Source: a virus. From it: a stretch of 64,000 bases of DNA. Both the position numbers and the translations under genes were made by a program. Below are positions 6,182 through 63,913 of this stretch, in pieces (positions within the stretch are counted from its first letter, which is position 1; every line of letters starts with the position of its first letter). The stretch is from positions 272,882 to 336,881 of the IMG/VR virus record IMGVR_UViG_3300005529_000001; one strand, given 5' to 3'. The notes under the pieces were generated by a model, which ran no database searches, was not told the origin of the DNA, and saw nothing but the letters and a program-made list of their open reading frames with translations.

Positions 6182-7828
6182 TCACTTCCTGAGCCAGTCG
6201 AAGTCCGAGACAAAACGACCGTAGGGACTACGTTGCAATTCTTGTGGGTTTCGTGGCCGCATGACGCTGTACGCGTTGACGCCGGCGATGTTCGGGTCGA
6301 CAAGCGGTTGGGCTTCGTTGATGTTCCCGGGCATCTTGTTGATGTCTTTCCTGTCCACGTGGGTGGCAGCTAACATTGCGTATGCCATCTCGCGCGCTTG
6401 TTCGCTGACCTGACCACCACCTTCGATGAGCCATGTTCCGATCGCCAAGCTCAGGACCAGGTCATCCCACGAGTCCTTTCCCGCAAGAGCTTTGTTCCCT
6501 TCCCAGATGAACGACTGGAGCTGGTCAAACAGGCGTCGCGAATATGACCTCAGTTGCTTGTTCCTGATCAACTCTTCTAGCTTAGCCAAGATCTGTGTTC
6601 GGGTCTTCTGGTTTGTGTTTGGAAACCCAGGTAGCTCGTCCTTAGGATCGATGGGCATGTAGTTGAACGGGTCACCCGTGTGCTTGGGATAGTAGAGCTT
6701 TTTGTAGTTGATCTGGTCACGTAGTTTCACACAGACCAGGTATCCGAAGGTGTTTTGTTCTGGGATTATGAGGGCATCGCAGTACTTTTTGCCCCACTCC
6801 GCTAGCAAGTCTGCCAAGTGCTCTGGCGGGATCTTACCCATGTACTCAGCACACACCTCATTGTCAACGGTGTCAATGACATGGAACGCTGAGTAGTCAT
6901 GCGCATCACCACGGCTGACGTCCGCGCTCAACACATAACGGTGACCCGCGACAGGCGGGCTCCAAACCCAGACACCGCCCGCAGGCCCCTCTTTCGAGAT
7001 GGGTGGCATGATCATTTCACGCAGGTAATCGAGCTCTTCGGGCTGGAGGAATGTGTCACCTGATGCAATGAAGTCACACATGAACTCTTGCGCAATCTGA
7101 CGCTTGTTCATGCCCTTTGATTCGTTCTTGAACCATGCTTCATCGTGTTCAGGATGGACGGTCCAGTGAAGCCGGATGGGGTTGAAGCCGTTGAGTCCCG
7201 CTTCGGCTTCCGTCCACAAACGGTAATACTGCCCGCCGACGCCCTTGGGAGTCGATAGCACGATCGCCTTGCCACCCGTCGAGATCGTTGGTTTCAGACC
7301 CGTCCAGATCTCTTCAAAATCACGAATGATAGCAGCTTCATCAACTATCAGAAGCGACAATGCTTCTGATCGGCCCGCATCTTCAGATGTTGGGATGGCA
7401 ACAACCTGCGAGCCGTTGTCAAAAGTAATGGCTTGCTTGGTGGGCTCAAACTTGGGCAGCAACAACCACTTGGGCAAATTGTCAAGGATGACCTTGCACT
7501 TTTTGATCATGTTCATCGCGGTGGGAAGCTTGGTCGCGATGATGAGGATGTTCTGGTCCTTGTAAAAGATGGCGAGCCACGTTGCGTACGCTGCACATAA
7601 CGTAGACAGACCCAGCTGTCTTGACTTCAAGATGATGTTAAGACGGTGTTCTATGAACTGCCTGACGCAGTCATCCTGAAACGGGTACGTTTCAAATGGG
7701 AGCAAGCCTCGAGCGGGGTGCTGGATCTTGCAATACTTCTTCATGAAGTAGACAGGATCCTTGCCACACTTGATTATCTCCTCGATCTGCTCCTGCTTTG
7801 ACAGGGGTTTTGGAGCAGCTTTCGTCAT
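6182..7828 (-). CDS. terL: terminase large subunit (T4 gp17-like)
   Basis: Walker A-like KSRQLGLST (T4 SRQLGKT), Walker B LLIVDEAA, C-terminal RNaseH-like nuclease region (LSADVSRGDAHDYSAFHVID). Confidence 0.9.
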   Translation of the reverse strand: MTKAAPKPLSKQEQIEEIIKCGKDPVYFMKKYCKIQHPARGLLPFETYPFQDDCVRQFIEHRLNIILKSRQLGLSTLCAAYATWLAIFYKDQNILIIATKLPTAMNMIKKCKVILDNLPKWLLLPKFEPTKQAITFDNGSQVVAIPTSEDAGRSEALSLLIVDEAAIIRDFEEIWTGLKPTISTGGKAIVLSTPKGVGGQYYRLWTEAEAGLNGFNPIRLHWTVHPEHDEAWFKNESKGMNKRQIAQEFMCDFIASGDTFLQPEELDYLREMIMPPISKEGPAGGVWVWSPPVAGHRYVLSADVSRGDAHDYSAFHVIDTVDNEVCAEYMGKIPPEHLADLLAEWGKKYCDALIIPEQNTFGYLVCVKLRDQINYKKLYYPKHTGDPFNYMPIDPKDELPGFPNTNQKTRTQILAKLEELIRNKQLRSYSRRLFDQLQSFIWEGNKALAGKDSWDDLVLSLAIGTWLIEGGGQVSEQAREMAYAMLAATHVDRKDINKMPGNINEAQPLVDPNIAGVNAYSVMRPRNPQELQRSPYGRFVSDFDWLRK

Positions 7829-8241: not shown

Positions 8242-8544
8242 TCAGTCTACGTCAAAGGTGATTGCCAGAGGGGGTCTCTGGGCCTCCAGCTGGTTGACTT
8301 GCTCGGCGGTTGGTCTCCAGCCCTCTTTCCACTGCACGGACCTGGGCTGTGCCCAGAACAGAGCGCAACGTTCACAACAGCCCACAGCACGCCAGGAAGC
8401 CTCATCGTCACGCGTCCGCATCAAGCACTTGCAGACTGGACACGCTAGAGGAACGGGCGGCTCAGCGTCCGTTGGGACAATGACGACAAACCCCTCAGGT
8501 TGGTCTTCGATCAGACGGTCTCGGAGGTACGGTCTCCAGGCCAT
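8242..8544 (-). CDS. small Cys-rich (zinc-ribbon-like) protein
   Basis: CPVCKC...CCERC cysteine pairs in 100 aa ORF. Confidence 0.35.
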   Translation of the reverse strand: MAWRPYLRDRLIEDQPEGFVVIVPTDAEPPVPLACPVCKCLMRTRDDEASWRAVGCCERCALFWAQPRSVQWKEGWRPTAEQVNQLEAQRPPLAITFDVD

Positions 8545-11135
8545 GCTTCACTGTACACCACCCGTGCATCCTTCTCGACCTTGTTCACCTCGATGATGTG
8601 GTCAGCAACGTCCTTGACACCCTCGACATGAGTGATAACGATGATGGTCTTGAAGTACCTCTTCAGCGACATCAACAGCCGGTTGCACTGTTCGATCGAG
8701 GCTGGGTCCATCGGGCCAAACGCTTCGTCAATGATGAACATGTCTGTCTTGGGCAACGATGAGAGATTGATCAGGGCGACACGGAGGGCAATGGAGGCCA
8801 CTGTCTTCTCCATGCCCGAGCCTAGCTCGATCGGGCGGCGGCTGTCACCGTAGTTGATGTAAACTTCCATCGCATCGCTATCGTTGTCAACCTCAAGCTC
8901 GATGTTGAAATTGACAATGCCCGTGAGGATCTTGCTGATCTCCGCATTGATGACAGGTAACTGGCTGGTGATGATTAGGTTTGGTATTCCCTTCCGTGAG
9001 AAGGCTTGAGCGATCAACTCATGCGCTTTCATCAAGCCAAGCATCTTTTCACGTTGCTCGCGGTCCTGTTCCAGCTTATCATAGTTAGACTGTTCACGAC
9101 CCTTCTTTGAAGCCAAGTCAAGTCTCTCACTGTCAACCTGACGGAGACGGCGGAGTAGGTCATCTTTCCGGTGACGAAGCGCAACTGCTTCAGCGTTCTC
9201 CTCGTTCTTAAGCGCTTCCTCGAGCTCAATGAGCTTCTGGTTCGCTTCTTTCACCCGAGGATAGAGGACGCTGTTGAGCTCGAGCATCTTCTTGTCATAA
9301 TCACGTTGTTCGTCTGCTAACTTGGTCAACAGGTCACCACGCATGTTACGCAGCTGGAGCAGCTTCGTTACCCGGTTGGACAGGTCCTCGTGGCGTAGCT
9401 CCACGAGCGCGTCATCTGCTTTGTTCAGCTTCTCCAACGCTTTTTCGACACGTTCCTTCTGCGGTTCGACCTTGTCTTTGACTTTATGCGCGTCCTTAAT
9501 GAATCGGCAACCTGGGAACTGATCACCACAGGGCACATCATCCAAGATTTTAAGCGACCGTTGTTGTTGCTTCAACAGGGCAGCTTCCTTTTCATGAACA
9601 ACACGTAGCTGATCGACAGCGGCCTCAAGCGTCTTATAAGCCTCAAGCCTCTTCTTCAGTTCATCAACGTCATTGTCGCGGAGCAAAGCGTCAATGGTGC
9701 TGACCTTCTGTGACTTCTGGCTCATCGAGGTCACCAGGTCACTGATCTGTTCATTGACCTTGGCACCCTGGTCACGCAGTGACTGAAGATATGACCGTTG
9801 TTTCTCGACCTCCGTCGGGGTAACCATCACTACGTCCTTAAAGGACGATTCTTCTCGGGCAACATCGGTGAGCTGGACTTGGATGTCGTGCTTCTCGTGA
9901 TCCTTGATCCCGATCTGGGCATCGAGGCTCTCGAGCGTTTCTTCAAACTTCCGTTGCGCCTCGGGCCAATCACGATCGGGCAATGACTTCAAGGCGGTTT
10001 TGTTAACGTTGACGTCATCCTTGGCTAGGTCATACATCTTGTCAAAGATGTCGAGATCCAAGAATCGTGCCACGGTCTGGCGCCGTTTGGTCGAGCCTTG
10101 GTTGATGTACTGTTTGATGTCGTCCTGTGCAGCGATGCTCGTCAGCAAGGCATCCTCGCCGCTGCCAATCAGCTTCCTGATGACACGGTCAGTGTCCTTA
10201 CGTTCTTCACCACCCAAGTCTTCCAGTTCACCCCCATCGACAATTTTGAAGACATTAAGGTGAGTGTTAGCGTGCTGGCGGCCCCACTTGTCTTCGTGCT
10301 TAACGGTCTGGCGTTCGATGATGTAGTCGCTGCCGCCCGAGTTGATGATGGCTCGGGCGTAAGCGTAGTCGTGCCGCACGTTGACAACATGGAGGTTCTT
10401 GATGCTACCGCGGTCCGACGTGTTGAACAGGACGTACAGGATGGTACCCACCACTGACGACTTGCCCTGACGGTTGGGACCGAAGATGCCGACGATGCCA
10501 TTCAGAGCATCGAAGTTGATGATGTTCCCCTCACCGTACGCGAAACAGTTGTCCCACTTCAGGTTACGAAGTGTCCACTTGGTGTTCCGAGCCACCTCGT
10601 CGTTGCCCAGGACCTTGCCCAGGTAATGGATGATCTGATCACGAACAGCTTGCCATTCTGTCTCAGTAACGTGAGAAGACGTGTGATAGTCCTTCAGCAA
10701 CCGTAACAGGACGTCCGGGTTGCGCAAGTCGTCCTTTGCAAGCGTCGCGGTACCAGCGCTGATCAGCTCCCTATCGAGTTGGTGATCTGTCTTGAAAGTC
10801 ACCTCACTAGCTTTCAGCTGCTCTTGCAGCTGTGACATCAGCTTGGTCACTTCTTTTTGGGCCAGGATCTCTGTCTTGCTCCTGATGCGATACCGCGTAC
10901 CAGGCGGGTAGTTAGCTACCTTCTTCAGGGTCTTCTCAACGTCACCCGCCCAATCAACAGTCACAAACGGTTTCGGATTGGGCAGTTCTTCGAACTTGAC
11001 ATCAAACTTGTCCCTGTTCTCGATGTCCCACAACAGGTAACCGTGAACCAATGACTCGCCATAGTTTTGCTGGACCGGACTGCCGGGGTACGCGACCCAC
11101 GGCCGCTTGACGCGGATCTTGATACGCTTGCTCAA
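8511..11135 (-). CDS. Rad50/SbcC-like recombination ATPase (T4 gp46-like) carrying an N-terminal segment homologous to the C-terminal part of Mre11/SbcD; starts at TTG overlapping upstream TGA
   Basis: N-terminus VAYPGSPVQQNYGE resembles SbcD YxGSPxxxSF segment; then Walker A GPNRQGKSS, long coiled coil, signature LGSGMEKT (LSGGE), Walker B MFIIDEAFG, H-loop ITHVE; GAGGTG SD 5 nt upstream of TTG. Confidence 0.85.
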   Translation of the reverse strand: MSKRIKIRVKRPWVAYPGSPVQQNYGESLVHGYLLWDIENRDKFDVKFEELPNPKPFVTVDWAGDVEKTLKKVANYPPGTRYRIRSKTEILAQKEVTKLMSQLQEQLKASEVTFKTDHQLDRELISAGTATLAKDDLRNPDVLLRLLKDYHTSSHVTETEWQAVRDQIIHYLGKVLGNDEVARNTKWTLRNLKWDNCFAYGEGNIINFDALNGIVGIFGPNRQGKSSVVGTILYVLFNTSDRGSIKNLHVVNVRHDYAYARAIINSGGSDYIIERQTVKHEDKWGRQHANTHLNVFKIVDGGELEDLGGEERKDTDRVIRKLIGSGEDALLTSIAAQDDIKQYINQGSTKRRQTVARFLDLDIFDKMYDLAKDDVNVNKTALKSLPDRDWPEAQRKFEETLESLDAQIGIKDHEKHDIQVQLTDVAREESSFKDVVMVTPTEVEKQRSYLQSLRDQGAKVNEQISDLVTSMSQKSQKVSTIDALLRDNDVDELKKRLEAYKTLEAAVDQLRVVHEKEAALLKQQQRSLKILDDVPCGDQFPGCRFIKDAHKVKDKVEPQKERVEKALEKLNKADDALVELRHEDLSNRVTKLLQLRNMRGDLLTKLADEQRDYDKKMLELNSVLYPRVKEANQKLIELEEALKNEENAEAVALRHRKDDLLRRLRQVDSERLDLASKKGREQSNYDKLEQDREQREKMLGLMKAHELIAQAFSRKGIPNLIITSQLPVINAEISKILTGIVNFNIELEVDNDSDAMEVYINYGDSRRPIELGSGMEKTVASIALRVALINLSSLPKTDMFIIDEAFGPMDPASIEQCNRLLMSLKRYFKTIIVITHVEGVKDVADHIIEVNKVEKDARVVYSEAWPGDRTSETV

Positions 11136-11779
11136 GCAATCACCTCAGCTTCTGGGTATTTTGCGAGTTCGCTCTCGTCAATCTCGAGCTCAACGTCTCG
11201 ACCCGCTAGGAACTGCATCTTGTGAATGTCTCCAAGCAAGACAAAGTCCCAACCACGGAAGAACTCAACCGTGATGCCCTCTTCAACCAACCAGTCACTC
11301 TCGGTTGTTGCTCCCCACACGGGACCGTGATAACACGCGATGTTGATCTTGCCGGGTACGGGCTTTACGTTGTCCCAGTTCGGTTCATCGAACAAGCTGA
11401 AGATGCCCCAGATATATCCGGGCGAAAACTCATACGTACCACTTTCCTTGTAGACGTGAATACGTGGGTTCTTCAACGCTTTGACGATGGGCGTCACCGC
11501 ATCCAAACGTGACAGGTTGACAAGGTTACCGTCGTGGTTTCCGAGAGTAAGATGCAGTTCAGCTGTCTCTGACAACGTTTCAAGCCACCAAACCATCTGT
11601 TCGATATACTCAGGCGACAAGCCTGAGGTCTTGGTGTGAAAGATGTCGCCTCCTACAAAGACGTGGTCAACCTTCTGTTCTTTGACCTGACGTGCAAAAG
11701 CAGAAAACACCTCTCGGTATTCGTCGTGCCTCGATAGTCCTCGCCAGTGAACGTCGGCAGTGTGAGCGATCCTCAACAT
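11132..11779 (-). CDS. Mre11/SbcD nuclease, N-terminal phosphoesterase domain only (T4 gp47-like)
   Basis: Motifs I-V present: AHTADVHW, GGDIFH, GNHD, CYHGP, GDIH; ORF stops (TGA) right after motif V where homologues continue. Confidence 0.85.
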   Translation of the reverse strand: MLRIAHTADVHWRGLSRHDEYREVFSAFARQVKEQKVDHVFVGGDIFHTKTSGLSPEYIEQMVWWLETLSETAELHLTLGNHDGNLVNLSRLDAVTPIVKALKNPRIHVYKESGTYEFSPGYIWGIFSLFDEPNWDNVKPVPGKINIACYHGPVWGATTESDWLVEEGITVEFFRGWDFVLLGDIHKMQFLAGRDVELEIDESELAKYPEAEVIA

Positions 11780-11848
11780 CTGATCTACATCTGATCAGTA
11801 CCGTGCCACCGAAAGGCTGTACAAGATCAAACTCTAGCACGCAAGCGT

Positions 11849-12853
11849 TCAACGTGAAAGAACGGTTCTTGACACAAAATCGAGCTTATCTCGAAACGAT
11901 TCAAACCAAGAAAACGAAGGAGCGGAAGCAATCAGTTGCTTCATCTGTGCCTTCGTTAGGCTACCTGGATCGGCATCTTTGGGCAACCGAACAATTCTGA
12001 CGGGTACATCGTAATCTACTAGCTTCCTCGCAAGGACGGGTACCTTGGTGTACCTCATGTCATCATCCAGAGCTATCACGATGGGCGTGTTATGCGCAAC
12101 GATAGCGTTAAACAACGTGCTCTCTTCGTTAAGATCGCTGCCTAACAGTGGAACAGAATTGTCTGGACACTTCACCAGATCGAAAGGACCCTCACACAAG
12201 ACAAGCTCACGTGTCCAATCGATATTCAGTTCATTGAAGATGATGGGTAGCTTGTCTTCATCTGGGTTGTCATACCGCTGTTTGAACTTGTCGATCGCTC
12301 TCCCCACGAAATAGTTCAACTCCCCCTCGCCGTTGAAAGAGGGCATGATGACCCGTCGTTTCCACCTGGGATCATCGCTATATCCCAGCTTGAAATACCA
12401 GAGATCGCGTTCCGTCAAGCCACGACCCCTTGGCATCGGTTCCATCAAATACCGTCGCATCGCAAGGACATCAGGATCACGTAATGACGCAGTCGCCAGC
12501 AACTTGAAGTCCTTGGGTAAAGCCAGCTTTGGCTTCTCTTCCATGACGTCAATGATGAGACATCTCCGCCGGGGTCCCTCTTGGGCCGGCATGAACTTCT
12601 CAACGTACTCAAGCAGTTTGTCTCTGGTCGAGTATTTCTTCAGCAACGGTGCCAGGGTGTGAGCCTTGTACCCACACGACCAACAATGGCACCTGTCATC
12701 CTCGATCAGGATCGCTAGCTTCTTCTTGCTGTGATCTTTCGGAGCGCAGATGGGACAACGAACGTCAAAATTCTTGCCGTTCCTCGCTAGCTTTCCGCTG
12801 CCAAAACAGCTCTCGATGAACCGAACTTTGTCTGAGATTGTGATCAGACCCAC
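11849..12853 (-). CDS. DNA primase (DnaG/T4 gp61-like)
   Basis: Zinc finger CPICAPKDH...CHCWSCG and TOPRIM-like LCEGPFD. Confidence 0.8.
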   Translation of the reverse strand: MGLITISDKVRFIESCFGSGKLARNGKNFDVRCPICAPKDHSKKKLAILIEDDRCHCWSCGYKAHTLAPLLKKYSTRDKLLEYVEKFMPAQEGPRRRCLIIDVMEEKPKLALPKDFKLLATASLRDPDVLAMRRYLMEPMPRGRGLTERDLWYFKLGYSDDPRWKRRVIMPSFNGEGELNYFVGRAIDKFKQRYDNPDEDKLPIIFNELNIDWTRELVLCEGPFDLVKCPDNSVPLLGSDLNEESTLFNAIVAHNTPIVIALDDDMRYTKVPVLARKLVDYDVPVRIVRLPKDADPGSLTKAQMKQLIASAPSFSWFESFRDKLDFVSRTVLSR

Positions 12854-13507: not shown

Positions 13508-13906
13508 TTACTTCAACAAGCCAAGGAGCTTCAGCTCCTTCTCGGTCATTATCACCAAAGTGACACCGTGGGCTTGACACCACCCTGCAGCCGCCTTCAG
13601 CTTCTTCTGGACCCGAGCTTGGTCCAACTTCCGTTGGGGCTTGATCTCGACCAAAAGTTGTTGGCCATCTCGTAGTTGGACAAGGAAGTCAGGCCAGTAT
13701 TGTCTGACTTTTCCCGTCTTTTTGTTCGAGATGTACTTGATCGACACATCTTCATACCGGTACCCCACGACGCTGTCATCAGCGTCTAGGTGTTGCATGT
13801 ACGCAAACTCCCATCCCGATCGGTAATGACACTCCTGGCCTGTCTTTGGAGACACATGGATGCCCGTGTGGTAACGCTTCTTCCGTTTTCGCTTTTTAGC
13901 TACCAT
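13508..13906 (-). CDS. PD-(D/E)xK nuclease, TnsA/endonuclease-like (possible freestanding homing endonuclease)
   Basis: YWPDF...LLVEIKP (D...E-x-K) core; same core as C-terminus of ORF 16791..17651. Confidence 0.5.
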   Translation of the reverse strand: MVAKKRKRKKRYHTGIHVSPKTGQECHYRSGWEFAYMQHLDADDSVVGYRYEDVSIKYISNKKTGKVRQYWPDFLVQLRDGQQLLVEIKPQRKLDQARVQKKLKAAAGWCQAHGVTLVIMTEKELKLLGLLK

Positions 13907-63757: not shown

Positions 63758-63830
63758 GGGTCCGTAGCTCAATGGCAGAGCAGCTCGATTTCAACCGAGT
63801 GTGTTGCGGGTTCAAGTCCCGTCGGGCCCC
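63758..63830 (+). tRNA. tRNA-like gene, 73 nt, 8-nt anticodon loop AUUUCAAC; anticodon ambiguous (UUC/Glu or UCA register)
   Basis: Acceptor GGGUCCG/CGGGCCC, D-arm GCUC-AAUGGCA-GAGC, T-arm GCGGG-UUCAAGU-CCCGU; only good anticodon stem GCUCG/CGAGU forces 8-nt loop. Confidence 0.6.
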
Positions 63831-63836
63831 CAAAAA

Positions 63837-63910
63837 GCTCCCGTAGCTCAGAGGCAGAGCAGCCGGATTTCAACCCGATGCGGTCGTGGGTTCGATCCCC
63901 ACCAGGAGCG
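63837..63910 (+). tRNA. tRNA-like gene, 74 nt, same AUUUCAAC anticodon-loop, weaker stems
   Basis: D-arm GCUC-AGAGGCA-GAGC, T-arm GUGGG-UUCGAUC-CCCAC, acceptor with one C-A mismatch; anticodon stem imperfect. Confidence 0.45.
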
Positions 63911-63913
63911 CAA

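Follow-up and report, generated by a model that had tools for sequence, protein, structure and literature searches.

To our knowledge, there is essentially one biochemically dissected case in which an essential phage gene is fragmented by a mobile endonuclease and rescued by charged tails, the ribonucleotide reductase (RNR) of phage Aeh1, whose NrdA-a/MobE/NrdA-b split was reportedly also treated by Friedrich et al. in 2007. In Aeh1, NrdA is divided by mobE into NrdA-a and NrdA-b, the oppositely charged tails of these two products were shown experimentally to be essential for activity, and mobE overlaps the beginning of the downstream fragment; the authors predicted that more such cases exist and would be hard to find (PMC3045599). 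The same article also suggests reassembly through charged tails for the topoisomerase II proteins gp39 and gp60 of phage T4 (PMC3045599). Here we describe a 64,000-nucleotide (nt) stretch of viral DNA (IMG/VR record IMGVR_UViG_3300005529_000001, positions 272,882 to 336,881; the window) in which a Mre11-Rad50 enzyme is encoded by two overlapping genes, and for which the Aeh1 split appears to be the closest precedent. We consider it probable (about 0.7) that this pair is a two-chain version of the single-chain Mre11-Rad50 of its relatives, reassembled via complementary tails, and that the split allele stems from homing-endonuclease activity.

Both genes are on the minus strand, as are all of their features described below. 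Open reading frame (ORF) A (11132..11779) encodes 215 amino acids (aa) comprising the N-terminal Mre11/SbcD nuclease domain with phosphoesterase motifs I to V and all predicted metal ligands, while ORF B (8511..11135) encodes 874 aa comprising the remainder of Mre11 and a complete Rad50. ORF A terminates in ...GDIHKMQFLAGRDVELEIDESELAKYPEAEVIA-TGA (also written ...LLGDIHKMQFLAGRDVELEIDESELAKYPEAEVIA-TGA), with its stop codon at 11134..11132; the TTG start codon of B (11135..11133; context gcTTGAgc) overlaps this TGA, the resulting 4-nt overlap (TTGA, 11132..11135) reading GTGA or ATGA in relatives. A Shine-Dalgarno-like GAGGTG (11141..11146), also conserved in relatives, is located 5 nt upstream of the TTG. 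These positions were recomputed and agree with a first-pass annotation of the same DNA, which had already placed the overlapping TTG and the GAGGTG. The N-terminus of B is MSKRIKIRVKRPWVAYPGSP (opening sequence, MSKRIKIRVKRPWVAYPGSPVQQNYGE). A TGA in the frame of B is found 12 nt upstream of the TTG, leaving a stretch open in both frames of about 12 nt, close to the roughly 10 nt noted previously. Overlaps of 4 nt are common in the window (8 cases among its 48 ORFs), and the A/B overlap thus fits ordinary translational coupling; a scan for promoters and terminators yielded nothing on the coding strand between A and B.

Relatives show the split to be real and conserved. With A as the query, a protein search identified 347 homologues; the best 120 of these, drawn from JGI, ENA, NCBI, and Logan assemblies, are all stand-alone proteins of 201–233 aa with 67–90% identity, encoded on contigs of up to 361 kb, and the relatives originate from ~340–360 kb contigs of environmental metagenomes. 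In the loci fetched for five A homologues, A is adjacent to a B gene of 858–873 aa. The two genes overlap by 4 nt in loci L004–L009 and L090–L091 and abut in L092–L093, and the window and its relatives have a common gene order (TnsA-like gene, ~205-aa gene, primase-like gene, A, B, 126-aa gene, terminase). An alignment of the junction DNA (GAAGCTGAGGTGATnnnGTGAGC) includes one relative with an in-frame 3-nt indel right after the start of B; the start codon itself is TTG in the window and L010, GTG in L004, L007, L014, L090, and L092, and ATG in L011, L025, and L096. Overall, the two-gene structure is present in more than 100 protein clusters and at least 10 independent assemblies (JGI, ENA, Logan, IMG/VR), which answers the question, raised in the first-pass annotation, of whether relatives keep the split. 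Synonymous sites are saturated in the clade of the window (proportion of synonymous change, pS, ~0.7) and nonsynonymous change (pN) is low, with pN/pS ratios of 0.27 for the core of A, 0.34 for its C-terminal tail, 0.46 for the N-terminal head of B, 0.38 for the Mre11 part of B, and 0.40 for its Rad50 part; between the window and L010, the head of B has no nonsynonymous and three synonymous changes. These low ratios indicate that both genes, as well as the extra sequences at the break, are maintained by selection. A genuinely re-partitioned architecture, one of two possibilities raised initially, is supported by conservation of the split, the overlap, and the Shine-Dalgarno sequence at 67–90% aa identity in unrelated metagenomes; the other, a single-base frameshift in a once-continuous mre11, was not borne out, as the two-gene structure is conserved and both frames are under purifying selection. 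A nucleotide search of 8400..12000 against cultured phage genomes gave no match, and all relatives come from protein-level searches; among bacterial and archaeal genomes, A matched a single contig of a metagenome-assembled genome (39% identity), which gave no hint of a host. A look for an overlooked gene between A and B at two slightly longer A homologues, P0035 and P0096, revealed none.

ORF A matches Pfam Metallophos (PF00149; E = 5e-12), and when it is aligned with fused relatives, residues D9, H11, D45, N81, H82, D83, H151, D184, and H186 do not vary, consistent with the initial assignment of motifs I to V to an ORF that ends at this TGA; motif V reads GDIH, not GHxH. The nuclease domain is not contained in one polypeptide: it is divided between A and B, and this division is conserved. 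Residues 14–215 of B (10491..11096) represent the rest of Mre11, i.e., the last nuclease strands (AYPGSPVQQNYGE), the capping domain, and a helical linker to Rad50, and include G18, E27, and W36, which are invariant and common to the fused forms. The Rad50/SbcC part of B (8511..10490), a coiled-coil ABC ATPase, contains a Walker A motif (GPNRQGKSS; residues 219–227, 10455..10481), a signature motif, Walker B, and H-loop (within 8601..8828), and a long coiled coil between them; its invariant residues are G224, K225, S226, G774, E776, D803, E804, and H836. The apex of this coiled coil carries an invariant PCGDxFPxC-FIKDAH motif (PCGDxFPxC at residues 536–543, 9507..9530), which is kept in split and fused relatives; its cysteines, C536 and C543, are six residues apart, and it is not a classical CxxC zinc hook. 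ORF B matches Pfam AAA_23 above the cut-off (SMC_N and SbcC_Walker_B below theirs), PHROG 77 (SbcC-like; E = 2e-50), and, in a profile search, E. coli SbcC (6s6v_C; E = 5.5e-30). An AlphaFold2 model of A joined directly to residues 2–216 of B, built from an alignment of A-only, B-only, and fused homologues, presented a complete nuclease and capping fold (mean predicted local distance difference test, pLDDT, 88.5; predicted template modelling score, pTM, 0.81), and the best Foldseek matches of this model were E. coli SbcD (7yzo_A, 4lu9, 6s6v) and T. maritima Mre11 (E ~ 1e-13); the sequence profile also matched SbcC and Mre11 structures. The superposition of the joined model on SbcD/Mre11 and these profile matches indicate that A and the first 215 residues of B together constitute one complete Mre11. 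The Walker A position, the AAA_23 match, and the joined model likewise agree with the description of B in the first-pass annotation as an SbcD-like segment and capping-like sequence that continue into a complete Rad50.

The unsplit state had been assumed to be a conventional Mre11 followed by a separate Rad50; instead, most relatives encode one fused Mre11-Rad50 polypeptide. Microcystis phage Mel-JY01, the nearest annotated phage, encodes a single 1066-aa protein with an N-terminal Metallophos domain and Rad50 behind it (L001 2359..5559), and LR756501, a metagenomic phage of 735 kb, has a single ORF of 1202 aa (L003 2404..6012). When the first 215 residues of B were used as the query against a library of representative proteins (one per 50%-identity cluster), 1040 clusters matched; the best 150 of these include 109 with the A domain in the same protein (~1035–1090 aa, matched from about residue 200 onwards), 25 full-length B-only proteins (~850–875 aa, with the match starting at residue 1), and seven truncated B-only proteins. 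Among 80 IMG/VR loci fetched with a B profile, ~65 were fused and 10 were split. With 109 of the best 150 clusters and ~65 of the 80 IMG/VR loci fused, the background state of the family is a single-chain Mre11-Rad50 fusion. Judged by these sequence comparisons, the window is in a minority whose single Mre11-Rad50 chain is cut, and the ancestor is a fused Mre11-Rad50 rather than separate mre11 and rad50 genes. Natural single-chain fusions of this kind (~1035–1200 aa, with GDIH rather than GHxH as motif V) form a large family in large phages, and literature searches on natural Mre11-Rad50 fusions in phages found no description of them.

Motif V (GDIH) and the next conserved strand (YPGS) are separated by 14–26 residues in fused forms, and all split forms have ~35 extra residues here that are absent from nearly all fused forms. 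The statement in the first-pass annotation that the gene is split after motif V is therefore correct in that the break lies past this motif, but the break is placed more precisely at the tip of an inserted ~35-residue hairpin that most fused forms do not have. On the upstream side of the break, the acidic C-terminal tail of A (residues 195–215, DVELEIDESELAKYPEAEVIA; 11135..11197) has a net charge of −7 and is modelled as a strand and a short helix; on the downstream side, the basic N-terminal head of B (MSKRIKIRVKRPW; 11097..11135) has a net charge of +6 and is modelled as the return strand of the hairpin. Split forms have the consensus [DE]VE[LI]EID-x-[DE]L-xx-YP-x-AEVI in the tail and M-x-K-x-IKI+VK+PW in the head, with mean charges of −6.9 and +4.9, respectively, over 15 split loci; tail and head both present an alternating hydrophobic/charged pattern as found in beta strands. 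The model contains one strand at residues 189–200 (QFLAGRDVELEI) and another at residues 219–230 (IKIRVKRPWVAY), with a tip formed by a short helix (202–207) and the break (215|216); mean pLDDT is 85–90 over the strands and helix (blocks 181–210 and 221–230) and 76 in the block with the break (211–220). From this model we infer that strand 219–230 pairs with strand 189–200 in a long hairpin with the break at its tip. A homologous long hairpin is unbroken in four fused representatives, P0146 (...FRDCIKTIDASEIFRYPNAQIIDELNDNKLQIIAKKPW...), P0248 (...YRDVKIDINPNDMHAYPASEVVGTRGENVTIQTQMPW...), P0139, and P0259. Strand charges are weak in three of these four (−2/+1, −3/0, and −2/+1), which suggests that strong charge complementarity goes with the split state, the small number of unbroken examples being a weak point of this comparison.

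In some relatives, a free-standing nuclease gene is found at the break point, a feature missed by the first-pass annotation. Three relatives (L002, L025 with the identical L095, and L096) have a gene located exactly between A and B, with A and B ~0.9–1 kb apart and with the same kind of tails in all three. The gap gene of LR756508 (L002), an ORF of 305 aa, combines zinc-ribbon repeats with a TnsA-like PD-(D/E)xK domain (PF08722; E = 6e-6). That of L025 and L095 is a 300-aa ORF with similar zinc ribbons and Vsr/DUF559 matches, and that of L096 (on a 201-kb contig) encodes a 324-aa homologue of the L025 ORF with 39% identity; in L025 and L096, the gap gene overlaps the start of the downstream fragment. 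The presence of two nuclease genes with only 39% identity in the same gap of divergent hosts suggests a site-specific association. About 100 further relatives of the L025/L096 nuclease are found in unrelated contexts, as expected for a family of free-standing endonucleases. The B region of L025 is 84% identical to that of L022, a fused form with a short loop, and at most 52% identical to that of any other split form; 1050 nt in L025, comprising tail, stop, nuclease gene, and head, replace 51 nt of L022, and the flanks are 76–79% identical.

In neighbour-joining trees of the B protein region, L025 grouped with L021 and L022 in all 60 bootstrap replicates, and every replicate needed 17–23 changes between the split and fused states. 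Several other split forms are closest to fused forms. As far as the sequence of B goes, these crude one-region trees, which do not give the direction of change, show the split state to be discordant with the gene tree. The split forms had been expected at first to form one clade, a grouping that the bootstrapped trees did not support. The fused loci L021 and L022 are ~99% identical to each other elsewhere and have 82–93% nt identity over the ~150–300 nt that flank, on either side, the loop at which the 1050-nt block of L025 is inserted (alignment columns 450–585 and 1575–1850); this drop in identity may represent a hot spot of local recombination or gene conversion.

Taken at face value, the sequences and the model are compatible with the following mechanism. 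Chain A (215 aa) would supply all metal-binding motifs of the Mre11 nuclease, and chain B (874 aa) would supply the strands that complete this nuclease domain, together with the capping domain, the linker, and the whole Rad50 ATPase. Translation of B would be coupled to that of A via the Shine-Dalgarno sequence and the TTG overlapping the TGA of A, and the nuclease domain would be rebuilt non-covalently as the acidic outgoing strand of A (VELEID) zips with the basic return strand of B (IKIRVKR); we infer that the two chains form an active enzyme. Historically, an ancestral single-chain Mre11-Rad50 would have gained a longer hairpin after motif V, and the hairpin tip would then have become a break site linked to a free-standing, site-specific endonuclease gene. 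All three elements (hairpin, break, and nuclease gene) may have spread jointly to other alleles by homing-like recombination; with the nuclease gene absent in many lineages, including the window, a compact coupled two-gene allele would persist. The nuclease-less split version in the window has been stable for a long time. The gap nuclease genes are thus candidate homing endonucleases that created or spread the split. An origin of the split allele in homing-endonuclease activity is probable: the same gap holds a nuclease gene in relatives, where hairpin, break, and nuclease gene make up a single ~1-kb insertion when compared with a close fused allele. More tentatively, with odds somewhat below even, a mobile "split-and-zip" cassette (hairpin, break, and nuclease gene) may home between the single-chain Mre11-Rad50 genes of large phages, each arrival giving a two-chain enzyme with complementary charged strands and each loss of the nuclease giving a stable allele like that of the window.

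Several observations weigh against a homing origin or against the predicted reassembly. The gap in the window contains no nuclease gene or remnant, its 4-nt overlap leaving no room for one, and none was seen in its close clade (L004–L009 and L090–L093); because of this absence, the split in the window is linked to homing endonucleases only through homology of the tails and of the site. Domain support for the gap ORFs is weak, the Vsr/DUF559 matches of L025 being under the Pfam cut-offs. The pairing of the tails was observed in an artificial concatenation of A and B, which forces both ends to be neighbours. The tails are host-protein sequence and not clearly borne by a mobile element, as the hairpin is unbroken in four fused proteins; the split could therefore stem from point mutations at the hairpin tip. 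A scattered split state could also result from within-gene recombination or from the split being lost repeatedly. In the main alternative, considered unlikely, no mobile element was involved: a long hairpin was inserted into the fused protein, point mutations at its tip made the stop, ribosome-binding site, and start, nuclease genes arrived later, and ordinary recombination scattered the split. The four fused relatives with the unbroken hairpin and the lack of a gap gene in 9 of the 10 split loci of the IMG/VR set and in the whole clade of the window favour such an origin, as does the usual location of free-standing endonuclease genes between genes (PMC3045599). However, it does not readily account for a single 1050-nt block with hairpin, break, and nuclease gene in L025 compared to the 84%-identical fused L022, nor for two divergent nuclease genes sharing one gap, and at least 17 state changes are many for unbiased recombination. 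Its adoption would alter the history, and not the working, of the enzyme in the window.

Since the two frames differ by a one-base shift and share an open stretch of only 12 nt, one might suspect that the gene is continuous in the real phage and bears either a frameshift introduced by sequencing or assembly or a mutation that inactivated it recently; a sequencing frameshift is excluded by the conservation of the same two genes across independent metagenomes, and the wider explanation is extremely improbable given the more than 100 clusters and at least 10 independent assemblies with this structure, the conserved position of the ribosome-binding site and start codon, and the combination of saturated synonymous sites with low amino-acid change in both genes and their tails. 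A programmed −1 ribosomal frameshift joining A and B into a full-length fusion would fit the −1 frame of B relative to A and would give a product that resembles the single protein of relatives. This is nonetheless very improbable: the 12-nt doubly open stretch (GGTGATTGCTTG) has no slippery heptamer (X XXY YYZ), a stop in the frame of B just upstream is conserved along with the ribosome-binding site and a TTG, GTG, or ATG start, and the two parts are ~0.9–1 kb apart with an intervening gene in L002, L025, and L096. In so-called fractured genes, the gene is split, the gap holds a homing endonuclease gene, and the halves complement each other electrostatically (PMC2677866; PMC3045599), and the tails could by analogy be split-intein halves that ligate A and B by protein trans-splicing. 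We give this practically no weight: at 21 and 13 residues, the tails are far shorter than intein halves, the A tail does not start with Cys/Ser and the B head does not end in His-Asn plus a Cys/Ser/Thr, Pfam returned no intein family match, and four continuous proteins contain a homologous hairpin as a normal element. Finally, the location of all predicted metal ligands within A could mean that A alone is a small phosphoesterase and that the Mre11-like start of B is a decaying remnant. We find this hard to believe, as A has no last strands of the fold, the strands and capping domain in B keep the invariant G18, E27, and W36 of the fused forms with a pN/pS of 0.38, and A modelled with residues 2–216 of B gives a complete SbcD-like fold.

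Under the preferred reading of a two-chain enzyme of probable homing origin, the pair resembles Aeh1 NrdA in that an essential enzyme gene, continuous in relatives, is cut inside its catalytic domain between adjacent beta strands, in that both products bear extra, oppositely charged C- and N-terminal tails, and in that neither RNA nor protein splicing appears to be involved; as in Aeh1, a free-standing endonuclease gene is found in the gap, but here only in the relatives L002, L025, and L096. The two cases differ in the enzyme (Mre11-Rad50 here, RNR in Aeh1), in the order of charges, which is reversed here with an acidic upstream and a basic downstream piece, and in the type of nuclease (PD-(D/E)xK-type with zinc ribbons here, the HNH MobE in Aeh1). 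Unlike in Aeh1, the endonuclease gene has been lost from, or was never present in, the window and most split relatives, some continuous relatives have an unbroken hairpin homologous to the tails, which are not clearly derived from a mobile element, and the split is found in dozens of lineages rather than in one phage. The tails were shown biochemically to be required in Aeh1; here, the purifying selection on the tails and the predicted strand pairing are indirect evidence that they may be needed for assembly or activity. T4 gp39/gp60 is likewise a different enzyme, and nothing comparable to the translational bypass of T4 gene 60 was seen here. Its gp39/MobA/gp60 arrangement is similar in that a mobile endonuclease gene divides a DNA-metabolism enzyme of a phage, the pieces of which bear tail-like extensions of opposite charge (PMC3045599). 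A split gene, a gap able to hold an endonuclease gene, and complementary ends are also features of the fractured genes of Dassa et al. 2009 (PMC2677866); unlike the products of those genes, the two chains here should stay separate, as there is no intein and the ends, of 21 and 13 residues, have no splicing residues. With E. coli SbcD/SbcC, T4 gp47/gp46, and T5 D12/D13, the pair has in common the same modules (phosphoesterase, capping domain, and Rad50 coiled-coil ATPase) and a presumed role in DNA end processing and recombination. However, the boundary in these canonical forms lies between a complete Mre11 and a complete Rad50, while here it lies inside the Mre11 nuclease domain, with the rest of Mre11 covalently attached to the N terminus of Rad50 and with immediate relatives that are single-chain fusions.

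Several genes surround the pair. Directly after B, a 100-aa ORF (8242..8544, minus strand) with a zinc-finger-like CPVC...GCCERC pattern overlaps the end of B by 34 nt; in L025, a clearly similar ORF of 99 aa (6445..6744), with no Pfam match, comes directly behind B. Immediately upstream of A, the gene at 11849..12853 (minus strand) has no Pfam match and is syntenic with a Mel-JY01 gene annotated as DNA primase-like and an L007 gene with a faint DnaG_N match; the order of primase-like gene and Mre11-Rad50 is conserved from the window to phages of 190–735 kb. Two genes upstream of A, a 132-aa ORF (13508..13906, minus strand) presented a strong match to the N-terminal domain of TnsA-like endonucleases (PF08722; E = 2.8e-18); it has counterparts at the same position in L004–L009 and L090–L093 and belongs to the same nuclease superfamily as the A/B-gap gene of LR756508. 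The main stop codon of the window is TGA (38 of 48 ORFs). Two tandem tRNA genes (63758..63831 and 63837..63911, plus strand; 52 and 47 bits with Rfam tRNA) have anticodon stems that pair best with an 8-nt loop (AUUUCAAC); ARAGORN reported a 4-base anticodon, "ttca", with no amino-acid identity. These tRNAs look like tRNA-Glu(UUC) with one extra A, or like UGA or quadruplet readers; quadruplet reading of UGAG at the A/B junction would give no entry into the frame of B. When viral contigs were searched for the odd anticodon arm, the three matches obtained were due to chance, and none was a tRNA.

The same solution of fragmentation and tails that is known from Aeh1 RNR appears here in a different core enzyme. 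If the cassette reading is true, with at least 17 independent transitions and all intermediates found in metagenomes, these phages would provide the first family-wide natural record of non-lethal fragmentation of an essential gene by mobile endonucleases. Public data contain the stages of short loop, unbroken long hairpin, split hairpin with a nuclease gene, and split hairpin without one; with these stages preserved, the origin of the tails and the order of events are testable by comparison and simple co-expression. In addition, the locus and its relatives represent two variants of Mre11-Rad50 for which no description was found in the papers searched, a large family of single-chain fusions in big phages and a nuclease domain assembled from two chains; both may be of use in structural work and as natural examples of protein-fragment complementation.

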